From: Sphyrna mokarran | Taxonomy: Eukaryota | NCBI GenBank assembly: GCA_024679065.1 | Contig: JAGIQG010000013.1 | Coordinates: forward strand, 52,204,001-52,268,000 | DNA: 64,000 bases | Reading direction: 5' to 3' | Part shown: positions 2,445-64,000 of the stretch, piece after piece | Numbering within the stretch: the first letter of the stretch is position 1 | Layout of the letters: each line of letters begins with the position of its first letter | Translations under genes and position numbers: made by a program | Notes under the pieces: model-generated | What the model saw: the letters and a program-made list of their open reading frames with translations, nothing else | Told to the model about the DNA's origin: nothing | Database searches by the model: none

Positions 2445-2591
2445 CTGCAAGAGCTTCCACCGTGTATTCAAGTCCTCTAATTGGTTTAGATTGTATGGAG
2501 ATAGCTGGATGTCTGGTGGTTTGAACTGACGGGCAAGGTCATTCATGTGAGTCACATTCTCTTTCAAAGGAGCGATTTCTGCTTGGAAAGC
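2445..2591 (-). CDS. DMD: Dystrophin exon orthologous to human exon 60 (spectrin repeat 24)
   Basis: Encodes AFQAEIAPLKENVTHMNDLARQFKPPDIQLSPYNLNQLEDLNTRWKLLQ. Acceptor is a polypyrimidine tract then CCAG; donor is CAG|GTGAGT. Length 147 bp, phase 0/0, as for human exon 60. The sequence is closer to dystrophin than to utrophin. Confidence 0.97.
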
Positions 2592-15076: not shown

Positions 15077-15345
15077 CTTGACTTTTTCAATATGGTCTTG
15101 CAGTGAGTCTATCAGCAGGTCTCCCACAGGTTGCCAGGTATCTTTGACAGCCTCAGCCTGTCTCAATTTACGGTTCAATTCATCCATTGCATCTTGTAAT
15201 TCCAGGAGCCTCGCCAGGGCCTCATCTATGCGCTTTTGCCAATCAACAGAGCGAGCGCTCAACTTGTCCCACTCGATTTTTACCTCCTCGGCATGCTTCC
15301 GAATTACTCTGGCAACAGTTTGGGCATTCTCTTCTGGTGTTTTCA
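15077..15345 (-). CDS. DMD: Dystrophin exon orthologous to human exon 59
   Basis: Encodes (V)KTPEENAQTVARVIRKHAEEVKIEWDKL...WQPVGDLLIDSLQDHIEKVK. Acceptor TTCAG, donor AAG|GTAAAT. Length 269 bp, phase 1/0. Confidence 0.97.
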
Positions 15346-19027: not shown

Positions 19028-19148
19028 CTTTTGGTGATGACAGAAGGCTTTCAGGTCCTTCAATAGGCTGATCAGCTAAGAACACACGTACTGTGTCCAA
19101 AACACTCATGACCACTGGTTCCTTTGCCTTCAACTCCCGCTTGAAAGT
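19028..19148 (-). CDS. DMD: Dystrophin exon orthologous to human exon 58 (not in the ORF track)
   Basis: Manual translation gives TFKRELKAKEPVVMSVLDTVRVFLADQPIEGPESLLSSPK. Acceptor TTTCAG, donor AAG|GTAATT. Length 121 bp, phase 0/1, joining exon 59 in frame. Confidence 0.95.
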
Positions 19149-23422: not shown

Positions 23423-23579
23423 ACGATGAACATCATTCTGTTGTTGTACAGCAGGAACATCCCCACCAATAGGTCTTTGCCTTGTCAGTTCATCGTTCTT
23501 CAAATTCAACCATGCTAGTAAGTCCTGGAGAGAAATGTGTAGTCGCTTCCACTGCTCGGCACTCGTCTCCAGACAGGCT
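23423..23579 (-). CDS. DMD: Dystrophin exon orthologous to human exon 57
   Basis: Encodes (R)[52 protein letters not shown]. Acceptor TTTTAG, donor CGT|GTAAGG. Length 157 bp, phase 2/0. Confidence 0.96.
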
Positions 23580-35419: not shown

Positions 35420-35592
35420 CTAATATTTAGCGATTTTTTCCTGAGTTCAGTCCAATGCAAGTTCATGTCATCAAGACGCCTCTGCAACAAAACCCCATCC
35501 TCTGCACCTTCCAGACCTTTAAGTATTTTCTGTCCATTCTCATCCAAGTTATGGTAAGTGTCAGTATGAGCTTCAATTTCTGTCTGAAGATC
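35420..35592 (-). CDS. DMD: Dystrophin exon orthologous to human exon 56 (not in the ORF track)
   Basis: Manual translation gives DLQTEIEAHTDTYHNLDENGQKILKGLEGAEDGVLLQRRLDDMNLHWTELRKKSLNI(R). Acceptor is a T-rich tract then GACAG; donor is TAG|GTAAGA. Length 173 bp, phase 0/2. Confidence 0.96.
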
Positions 35593-35785
35593 CTGTCAAA
35601 GAAGGAAAAAAAAAACACATTGCTTCTATATTTCTCCATTTGTCAAAAATGGACTTTCACGATCAGAACAATCATTGAACTGTGCCTGACTTCACATTTT
35701 ATTCAATTTAATGATAAATTGGAAATAAAATTGACAACAAAATAAAACAAAACAGAAAAAAAAACGCATTCCTGACACCACTGAC

Positions 35786-35863
35786 CTTTACGTAATACGT
35801 TTTTCTTTGCAGCATTTTTAATCTAAACCTTGGAAGGATGCAAAGGCTTTGAGGCGCCTGCAT
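35786..35863 (-). CDS. DMD: Coding part of the alternative first exon of dystrophin isoform Dp116
   Basis: 26 codons, MQAPQSLCILPRFRLKMLQRKTYYVK, ending at the phase-0 donor AAG|GTCAGT, 193 bp from exon 56. The last 10 residues match the mammalian Dp116-unique MLHRKTYHVK at 8/10. An in-frame TGA lies upstream at 35915-35917, and the first ATG has A at -3. Confidence 0.88.
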
Positions 35864-36070
35864 TGTGCCCAGGATAGTTGCTTGAGAAAGCGCAGATCCT
35901 TGTCCACTTTCTGCTCAGTAATGTGCGGCTGGATAAGAACCAGCCTCAACATTCAATATTGCATAACGAGACCAGAGAATACAATACCATCATTCAGGGC
36001 AGTGGCCTTTTAGCAACACAACAGTTGAATAGACCACTCATATAATTAGCTTTGTTTTTTATAGAAATAA
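35864..36070 (-). promoter_or_regulatory. Putative Dp116 5'UTR and internal promoter
   Basis: No recognisable repeat directly upstream of the Dp116 ATG. On the minus strand, TATAAAA (36057-36063) abuts a SOX-like AACAAAG (36050-36056). Position is the main evidence; the motifs are short. Confidence 0.45.
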
Positions 36071-56300: not shown

Positions 56301-57799
56301 AATTAAGACTTGTTCTCCTTAATTTATACTCAGCAGTTATAATCATCAACTGCATGTGTTGGCCCTTACCCATGTTTGTTTATATAACAGATAGAACTGA
56401 GAGTGTGGGATGGCAGATGTGCTGCACCTAAATTGATCTCAACATTAAAACCATTCCTTGATTATATTGCTCTCTACCAGGAATATTTTAGCTTCTGAAT
56501 GTGGAATTAATAATATTCATGCAGCATAACACTTACTCATTTCATAGATGCAGTCTTTTTGGCAAAAACAGAGACAAGTACCAAACTAAATGGCTAGTTT
56601 ACACTAGGCAGTTTATTCTCAGCATATTTATAACTGCAATGAAAGCATGCACACATTAAACTCATGCTGAATTCTTGGTCCCAATTCATTAGAATCGTAG
56701 CACAACAACAGGTTAAGCACCAAACATCGGCTAACAGTTGATATCAAATCATTTATTGTGAAACCATGAAGATGTTTTCTCTAGCTCATAAACCTAATCT
56801 TATACCTATTCAAAGTCGCTCGTAAACTTAAGTTTGAGCATAGTATAATTGACTTTACAGTCCAGTTAAAATGTACTCACTGTACTGAAATTGTATTTGT
56901 TCCAATCCCAGGAATTCCAGCAAAGGTCTAGGTCCATCCTTCTTTATCTTCTATTACTGTTTTCAGCCTATTCAGAGCTTACCCTAATATTTGTTTCTGT
57001 GCCTTTCTCTTTAAAAAAAACCTCGTTCTAGTTTGCCACTGATTTAGAAAACATTCCCTTCAGCTTCATGCACACATACTCACAAAAACACAGGTTGCAA
57101 TAGTGCTAGTATACAAAGCTTGCTTTCATTCAGCAATCCACCCAAGGTCTTTCTGCCTATTTCCACGGCAATCCATTTCCCTCCAGGATAAAGTAGAACA
57201 GCTACTGCTGCCATTAGTTCCGCTCACATCCCACTGCTTCCAATTAGCACCAATTTCCCCTTACAATACAGGCAGCCAGAAGGGCACGGCAGAAACAAAA
57301 AGGCAGCAGTCTTAAAAGCTGGGAGCAAAGACAAGAAAGGTTTTCTTCCTTCCACCTGCTGAGTTATTAAAGCTGCTGCAGCAAATACAGTGCCATTCTC
57401 CTGGGCTTTGCTTTTCCTGATGTGGGGTTAAACAGTATTTTTATCTAGAGTGTTAATTAGCCTCATATACATTTCTGCCAGTTTCTGCAGTTCTTGCCAG
57501 ATCCTCTGGTCTCATGCTCCTCAAGGGAAGCTGTGTGTAAAAATAAAAAAGCATTCCCTCTGCAATACCCTATTTTACTTTGTTCTTTTATACAGTAAGA
57601 TGCTGATAAATCTTTTACTTATTATGGTTTTTGAACATGTTTTTCCTGTACCAAGCTGCTGCACCACCCCCCCTTGTCCCACACCACCACTGCCTTCAAT
57701 GGACTCGTAGTCATACTGCTCTGTAATCATTAAGAAGTGCACTTAAACAACTTGGGGTGATTGCCCAGACCATTCTAAATCATGCCATTGTGGAGAAAT

Positions 57800-61971: not shown

Positions 61972-62190
61972 ATAAAAACAAAATACTGTGGATGCTGGAA
62001 TCTGATGCAAAAACAGAAAATACTGGAAAATCTCAGCAAGTCTGACAGCTTCTGTGGAGAGTGAACAGAGTTCCCGTTTTGAGTCTGGATGACCCTCCAG
62101 AGTAAGAAGTCTGACAACACCAGGTTTATGTTTCTACATCAAGACCCTTCAGAGCCATGGGCTCTGACAAAGGGTCATCCAGACCCTTCT
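61972..62190. mobile_element. Second Penelope-like tail family, with partial inversion and a chimeric fragment
   Basis: Tail aaatactgtggatgctggaatctga...ctggaaaatctcagc, and a perfect 14-bp inverted repeat at 62083-62096 and 62171-62184. Confidence 0.55.
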
Positions 62191-62336
62191 CGGAGGCATT
62201 TCCACCATTTTGTAACATTTTCAAGTGGAGCCGTGTAGCCCAAACCGTCCACTGATTAGAAGTGGGCAGCCAATTTACATTGTTAAAGCCACAATTTGGG
62301 TTGAATTTGCATATCTCATTAGCACTTTGCTGCTGG

Positions 62337-63155
62337 GGGAGCAGCCCCCCTGCCGTGCACCGGCCGCAGCCCCCCCCGTTCACCTGCTGCAGCCCCCCCT
62401 GCTGTGCACCGGCCGCAGCCCCCCGCTGTGCACCGGCCGCAGCCCTCCCGCCGTGCACTTGCCGCAGCCACCCCTACCTCACCGTGCACCTGCCGCAGCC
62501 CCCCCCGCCATGCACCGGCCGCAGCCCCCCCCGCCGTGCACCGGCCGCAGCCCCCACGCCGTGCACCGCCGCAGCCCCCCCGCCGTGCACCGCCGAGCCC
62601 CCCGCTGTTCACCTGCCGCAGCCCTCCCCCGTGCACTTTGCCGCAGCCACCCCCCCTCGCCGTGCACCTGCTGCAGCCCCCCCCGCCGTGCACCGGCCGC
62701 AGACCCCCGCCGTGCACCGGCGGCAGCCCCCCCGCCATGCACTTGCCGCAGCCCCCCCGCCGTGCACTGGCCGCAGCCCCCCCGCCGTGCACTGGCCGCA
62801 GCCCCCCCGCCGTGCACCGGCTGCAGCCCCCCGCCGTGCACCGGCCGCAGCCCCCCCACCGTTCACCTGCCGCAGCCCTCCCGCCGTGCACTTGCCGCAG
62901 CCATCCCCCTCGCTGTGCACCTGCCGCAGCCCCCCCCGCTTCACCTGCCGCAGCCCCCCCCGCCGTGCCCGGCCGCAGCACCCCCGCTGTGCACCGGCCG
63001 CAGCCCCCCACCGTTCACCTGCCGCCCCTCCCGCCGTGCACCGGCCGCAGACCCCCGCCGTGCACTGGCCGCAGCCCCCCTGCCGTGCACTGGCCGCAGC
63101 CCCCCCGCCGTGCACCTGTCACAGCACCCCCGCCGTGCACCGGTCGCAGCCCCCT
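62337..63155. repeat. GC/CpG-rich minisatellite, unit about 24-25 bp, roughly 33 copies
   Basis: Consensus (c)4-8gccgtgcaccggccgcag, with recurrent variants ttcacctg, gcacttg and gcactgg. Confidence 0.95.
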
Positions 63156-64000
63156 GTCACAGACCAGTAGTTTCCCCGGGTCCACTGATTTTGCCCTTCA
63201 GATTTAGGCATCTGAGTGTGTTTCCAGTTTGAGATGCCCTCACAGTTCTCAGTCTGCCTCAGCAGTGCTCTGATCTCCCAGTGGGGTGTCAAGGATTTAA
63301 GAGTGGCCAACTCTCCAACTGGATTGACAGTATGGACAGCTCATTTGATGTTTCAGACTGTGATGCTGATCTCACTGCCGGCAAATTGACGCTCAGGACT
63401 CTCATCTGGTCCTGGCATCAGAGTCCTGAAACCTTGGCAAAATCTACCAAACAGCCTTAAATGTAAACATTAGACTCATTTTTAAATAAATTGTGAACAT
63501 GTCTTCGTAGATTAAACCCTGTTCTAAAATGGTCCTTAGGAAAGTGATGATGAAGCCAGCAACTAGCCTAATGATGAGTGAAATGCTCCAGCTGTAAAAA
63601 TGTAGTTAGCCTTTATCAGATAACGTGTACCAAGAATGGGATTGTGCAGGTTTATACAACTGAAAGATTCTGATTTTGAATTCTTGGAATGGAAAGCTTT
63701 GACAGAACATGGGAGTCAATGGCAACAGCACAGAAGGAGCTGAGTGTGCTAGCTGCTCATTTTACATCATGGTCATTTTTTCTTTTCTCTTGGTTTCCTG
63801 CAGTGAGGGACCGGGTAATTTTAACTGCTAGGAGTCATTCAAACGAGTCAAATGGATTGCTCACCTGAAGCAAGCAGGGATGATGTGGAAGCTGGCAGAC
63901 AGGAGCAGCATTCCAGAACTCAGGAATCCATGTCGGCTGTTCCTGCTAGTTAAATAAGTTGATCCGGAGATACCTGAAGGGATCACAGTTAGGGAAAGGG

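Follow-up and report, generated by a model that had tools for sequence, protein, structure and literature searches.

Does intron 55 of a shark dystrophin gene hold the first exon of the short isoform Dp116, and at which of two in-frame ATG codons would translation of that isoform begin? The question is raised by a 26-codon open reading frame (ORF) in Sphyrna mokarran, found in a stretch of 64,000 nucleotides of contig JAGIQG010000013.1 that was analysed as a whole and is called the window below. The human counterpart of this exon, S1, is 91 bp long with 24 codons, which by arithmetic gives a leader of 19 nt (PMC5664101). Classical Dp116 was defined from the second methionine (Met2); the upstream ATG was later proposed as the likely real start, its product was named Dp118 and its two cysteines were noted, with protein proof described as lacking by the same source, which also gives a translation initiation (TIS) score in human of 0.094 for the upstream codon versus 0.005 for the second, and reports a doublet near 116 kDa in mouse nerve and assembly of a dystroglycan complex by mammalian Dp116 (PMC5664101). 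The accessible portion of another source, PMC6849142, contains no mention of Dp118. S1 has been described as conserved from mammals to zebrafish, where RT-PCR confirmed the transcript, and "across all gnathostomes", with start codons that differ between species and with a modification of its cysteines suggested by Jin et al.; the shark sequences in the portion of that source at hand are DRP2, Dp71 and exon 78, not S1, and its Additional File 1C may hold a predicted shark S1 (PMC1790709). The upstream start is therefore not new, having been published as Dp118 (PMC5664101), nor are gnathostome-wide conservation and the idea of cysteine modification, in print since 2007 (PMC1790709). Our reading, to which we give a probability of roughly 0.85, is that the shark ORF and S1 are orthologous, that an internal promoter in intron 55 likely drives its transcription, that it is predicted to be spliced in frame to exon 56, and that both of its in-frame start codons are likely usable. 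The shark S1 is real and its naming holds, yet it adds just another copy to a feature already known, published and annotated.

The ORF has the 26 codons on the minus strand, and the 26-residue translation, first stated for it, and ends in a phase-0 donor, AAG/GTCAGT, from which the join to exon 56 is in frame (Table 1). The original prediction also had the ORF bounded by an upstream stop; this exists but does not adjoin the ATG, and no methionine codon lies between the two. The end of exon 55 (donor L011:2500) was located about 32.5 kb past the upper end of the window, and the intron 55 thus delimited, about 60.9 kb long, contains S1. The host gene is dystrophin and not utrophin, as judged from the identity of its exon 56 to that of whale shark dystrophin (93%); the exon 56 paralogue on contig C224 is 49% identical and matches named utrophin at 72%. 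Elsewhere in the same intron, at about 62100-63200 of the window, the sequence is GC-rich, repetitive and minisatellite-like, with long minus-strand frames of Gly/Ala/Arg-rich repeats.

Table 1. Features of the shark dystrophin and utrophin loci, in window coordinates unless a locus is named. Exon numbers are taken to be those of the human gene, consistent with PMC5664101.
Feature	Position	Strand	Basis
Coding part of Dp116-type first exon S1, from upstream ATG (Dp118-type start), 26 codons	35786..35863	-	translation, homology
10-codon core from second ATG (classical Dp116 start)	35786..35815	-	8/10 identical to goat, mouse, duck, coelacanth
In-frame TGA, 17 codons upstream of first ATG	35915..35917	-	
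Intron from S1 to exon 56, 193 nt	35593..35785	-	GTCAGT donor, pyrimidine tract, CAG acceptor
Dystrophin exon 56, 173 nt	35420..35592	-	PDB 9c3c_D residues 2733-2789, E 6.8e-23; 93% to whale shark dystrophin; contigs of runs guessed to be RNA, three studies
Dystrophin exon 57, 157 nt	23423..23579	-	tblastn; boundaries read off sequence
Dystrophin exon 58, 121 nt	19028..19148	-	tblastn; boundaries read off sequence
Dystrophin exon 59, 269 nt	15077..15345	-	tblastn; boundaries read off sequence
Dystrophin exon 60, 147 nt	2445..2591	-	tblastn; boundaries read off sequence
Second candidate first exon in intron 55, 19 codons, Trp-containing	56881..56937	-	salamander and turtle model N-termini
G-utrophin-type first exon	L033:8819-8709 (G000:C224:306119-306009)	-	81% to fish model, E 4.5e-15
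Proximal utrophin first-exon candidate	L004:4115-4065 (G000:C224:231614-231564)	-	82% to fish utrophin isoform X5/X6 starts, E 1.6e-5

The naming as a Dp116 first exon is borne out by the position in intron 55, by the in-frame join and by a comparison with goat, whose S1 peptide scores 81 on the shark ORF, the top of 674 candidates running from an ATG to a phase-0 GT in the intron, while no more than 33 was reached by any of 5403 control candidates; this excludes a chance ORF. A search of the shark's own genome with S1 returned one match, and one candidate was scored. The mammalian peptides given when the exon was named (MLHRKTYHVK and, upstream of it, MQQDQCCS(A/P)RFKLK) agree with the sequences available from PMC5664101. 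Like mammalian S1, the shark exon sits in intron 55 shortly ahead of exon 56, joins it in phase 0 and shares eight of ten core residues, as it does with coelacanth; it differs from human S1 in the length of the following intron, 193 nt as against 755 bp (PMC5664101). That the exon might still be a silent remnant in S. mokarran, or the ORF fortuitous, is an idea that can point to the lack of direct transcript evidence for S1 in this species, but the ORF and donor are intact, 24 of 26 residues are those of a whale shark model and the goat score stands far above all 5403 controls, so that we consider it extremely improbable. Of 22 runs listed, none recorded as RNA, 16 were guessed to be RNA, and contigs of four of these were compared with the window: three of the four had one contig each on exon 56, each running into the end of exon 55, where its overhang is identical to L011, as in the long form, and none of the four had a contig over S1 or its intron, a result of no weight either way because such contigs drop rare variants.

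The closest relative is whale shark XP_048458782.1 (RefSeq dystrophin isoform X2, 990 aa), a computed gene model that came top among the best 120 of 124 matches in an exon-56 search of proteins of 101-2000 residues. Exon, start and join are the same as in S. mokarran: the N-terminal peptide differs by two substitutions, at positions 6 and 13, and is followed directly by exon-56 residues, and the Pfam domains found in the model are PF00435, PF00397, PF09068, PF09069 and PF00569. The expectation that ORF callers would miss this exon thus failed, as this model contains S1 and starts at the upstream ATG. Of two homologue searches with S1 itself, one returned the query alone and the other two candidates, neither of them scored; the wider set of S1 proteins was assembled from the exon-56 search, three look-ups of clusters, each listed to at most 15 members, and one profile search, the last yielding mostly full-length dystrophin-family proteins and adding two of S1 type (mouse, medaka). 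Among the 419 proteins listed, 75 contain the S1 core, 42 of them starting at Met1 (one being the window's own peptide), 30 at Met2, and three carrying it internally. Met1 starts were listed for whale shark, coelacanth, tuatara, turtles, alligator, birds and mammals, including mouse BAE28714.1, whereas all listed S1 models of frogs (seven species), squamates (seven) and ray-finned fish (three), 17 species in all, start at Met2. The distribution supports the predicted age of the isoform, at least that of the jawed-vertebrate ancestor, and hints that the extension may have been lost in the Met2-starting lineages; such models are not proof of loss, because hamster, which has a Met1 model, also has one that starts at Met2. 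In some sturgeon S1 models (P0100, P0114) two extra residues stand at the join of S1 to exon 56, which suggests a second splice site 6 nt away.

The upstream extension itself is intact. In the shark, the first ATG is in frame 16 codons before Met2 with no stop between them; as in Dp118, the peptide begins with M-Q and has a Cys and a Pro at the same distances from Met2, but Dp118 has 14 extra residues, two cysteines and SPRF or SARF, where the shark has 16, a single cysteine and LPRF, with the Ser of the SPRF kinase site absent. The stretch between the two ATGs is identical at 9/14 positions to goat and mouse and at 8/14 to coelacanth. Across 14 distinct long peptides the invariant residues are M1, Q2, the Cys nine before Met2, the Pro six before it, Met2 itself, and L, R, K, T and Y; a pair of cysteines occurs in the bony-vertebrate peptides (12/14). 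The claim that M-Q, a cysteine and RF(R/K)LK are kept thus held for the first two, whereas R occurs in 10/14 and F in 8/14.

Conservation of this kind might be explained without translation if the second ATG were the only start and the upstream 16 codons a 5′ leader or promoter preserved at the DNA level. The definition of classical Dp116 from Met2, the Dp118 protein still unconfirmed at the time of PMC5664101, and the existence, among listed models, of whole lineages with Met2 starts alone would all suit that explanation, but the frame has stayed open across shark, coelacanth and amniotes, the indel separating the shark from bony vertebrates amounts to two whole codons, and the exchanges (K/R, L/F/I) are conservative; moreover, scanning ribosomes would reach the first ATG, with its A at -3, before the second. 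We therefore judge it improbable. Both ATGs lie in like contexts, with A at -3 and C at +4, from which it follows that ATG1 should be used when the exon is transcribed, with leakage to ATG2; both Met1-starting and Met2-only S1 models occur, which indicates that both starts are probably used. The short human leader and the reported mouse doublet fit such dual initiation. From an out-of-frame ATG of weak context at 35952 (minus strand), a frame runs across ATG1 to a stop at 35820, just before ATG2; this ATG would favour ATG2 if transcription began upstream of 35952.

The original prediction went in the other direction, suggesting that the upstream ATG is the real start. A homologous open extension was indeed found; sole use of its ATG was not shown, as Met2 is equally invariant and is the start of 30 of the 75 listed S1 proteins. 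The strongest form of the proposal would make the upstream ATG the only real start and its Cys and basic patch an essential palmitoylation or membrane anchor. Anchors of this N-terminal S-acylation type place a Cys close to the N-terminus, next to basic and hydrophobic residues. The shark peptide has that weakly specific pattern (Cys8, six K/R, no D/E), and the Cys invariant in 14/14 long peptides, the Cys pair in most of them, the human TIS score favouring the upstream codon (PMC5664101) and the modification suggested by Jin et al. (PMC1790709) are all in line with an anchor. Against it weigh the Met2 starts of every listed frog, squamate and ray-finned-fish model, the single Cys of the shark and the Cys-free G-utrophin-type exon of the same genome, and the literature searched, mostly without subscription papers, held no report of Dp116 palmitoylation. 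In our view an exclusive upstream start with an essential anchor is improbable, on a par with initiation at Met2 alone. Returning to dual initiation, we regard the extension as a peptide that is probably under constraint yet dispensable. The best guess for its role, a tentative one that we think doubtful, is S-acylation of the invariant Cys beside the basic patch, since the single shark Cys, the Met2-only lineages and the Cys-free utrophin exon all weaken it.

Intron 55 may hold more than S1. Further upstream lies a second candidate first exon (Table 1) with a strong start context (A at -3, G at +4), a TAA three codons upstream and a phase-0 donor, ACA/GTGAGT. It was the best of the 674 intronic candidates for the 17-residue N-terminus of Pleurodeles waltl X8 (XP_069060860.1), with a score of 32 that was reached by none of 5403 controls and by 3 of 300 shuffled queries; as this N-terminus was one of 11 non-S1 N-termini tried and the candidate came third under ungapped scoring, the test alone is modest. 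Independent support comes from two turtle models not used in finding the exon, Trachemys scripta X13 (XP_034610632.1) and Mauremys mutica X19 (XP_044858247.1), for which the same donor was the best of 2063 sites with a summed score of 37, reached by none of 15118 controls (singly, it ranked first and fourth). Salamander and turtle models share with the shark exon a phase-0 ending of the form [NS]-[KH]-[YC]-x-x-[SC]-T; their lengths differ (17 residues in salamander and 13 in turtle versus 19 in shark), and for the front part of the turtle peptide the best fit to the shark DNA is in a shifted frame (10/12 bases by back-translation). For other odd N-termini preceding exon 56 (P0007-P0011, P0041, P0049, P0086, P0115, P0121), intron 55 offered no convincing match. 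A second start in dystrophin intron 55 was not found in the literature searched, mostly without subscription papers, and is present in RefSeq models. From sequence comparison, we would put at about even odds the proposal that the jawed-vertebrate ancestor had two first exons in intron 55, the Cys-bearing S1 and the 19-codon Trp exon kept in sharks, salamanders and turtles, which, if true, implies an undescribed isoform of Dp116 size; an overlooked counterpart of the second exon in mammals is possible.

The utrophin paralogue offers a parallel. Published utrophin forms include Up140, Up113, Up109 and Up71, as listed in PMC10789850. Intron 55 of utrophin in S. mokarran has two conserved first-exon candidates, and the two-promoter layout may therefore be ancestral. 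The distal one, a G-utrophin (Up113)-type exon 78 kb from exon 56, has a stop directly upstream, no Cys, a conserved SPRY and the donor AAG/GTTAGT; it resembles S1 in lying in the paralogous intron, in its phase-0 AAG/GTYAGT donor and in a PR[FY] motif, but peptide similarity to S1 is not significant, with 385 to 1782 of 2000 shuffles scoring at least as high. A similarity search of the genome from S1 missed this exon, which came to light only when a fish utrophin model was used. The proximal candidate may be the start of Up109; paralogy between it and the second dystrophin exon was considered and is unsupported (144 to 1428 of 2000 shuffles for protein, 833 of 1000 for DNA). The utrophin introns (L005 and other C224 loci) presumably carry remains of LINE elements, in the form of many fragments resembling CR1-type reverse-transcriptase pieces. 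The donors of S1 (35785-35780, minus strand) and of the G-utrophin-type exon (L033:8708-8703, minus strand) both have an uncommon pyrimidine at +3, described as a feature of alternatively spliced dystrophin-family donors (PMC1790709).

Taken together with what is known from mammals, these results suggest how the shark exon would work. An internal promoter in intron 55 would drive transcription of S1, whose predicted in-frame splicing to exon 56 would give a short dystrophin of about 990 residues. Scanning ribosomes would mostly take the first ATG and produce a 26-residue, Dp118-type front end, and some would leak to the second and produce the 10-residue, Dp116-type one. By analogy with mammals, the product would have neither the N-terminal actin-binding domain nor the greater part of the rod, but would keep the last spectrin repeats and the WW, EF-hand, ZZ and C-terminal regions, and in Schwann cells and other neural cells it would anchor a dystroglycan complex. 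Dp116 RNA has been reported from mouse cortex and photoreceptors (PMC9896479), and Schwann-cell specificity cannot therefore simply be carried over to the shark.

For the dystrophin family, the S1 exon of S. mokarran is one more shark for a pattern in print since 2007 and present in RefSeq. Its value is modest: once the shark version is included, what is conserved in the Dp118 extension shrinks to the M-Q start, one Cys, a Pro and basic residues, which shows which Cys to mutate; the shark version is also relevant to a question raised in PMC5664101, namely whether part of the natural N-terminus is missing from Dp116 transgenes. Transcription of the second intron-55 start, if it occurs, would mean one more dystrophin isoform to catalogue.
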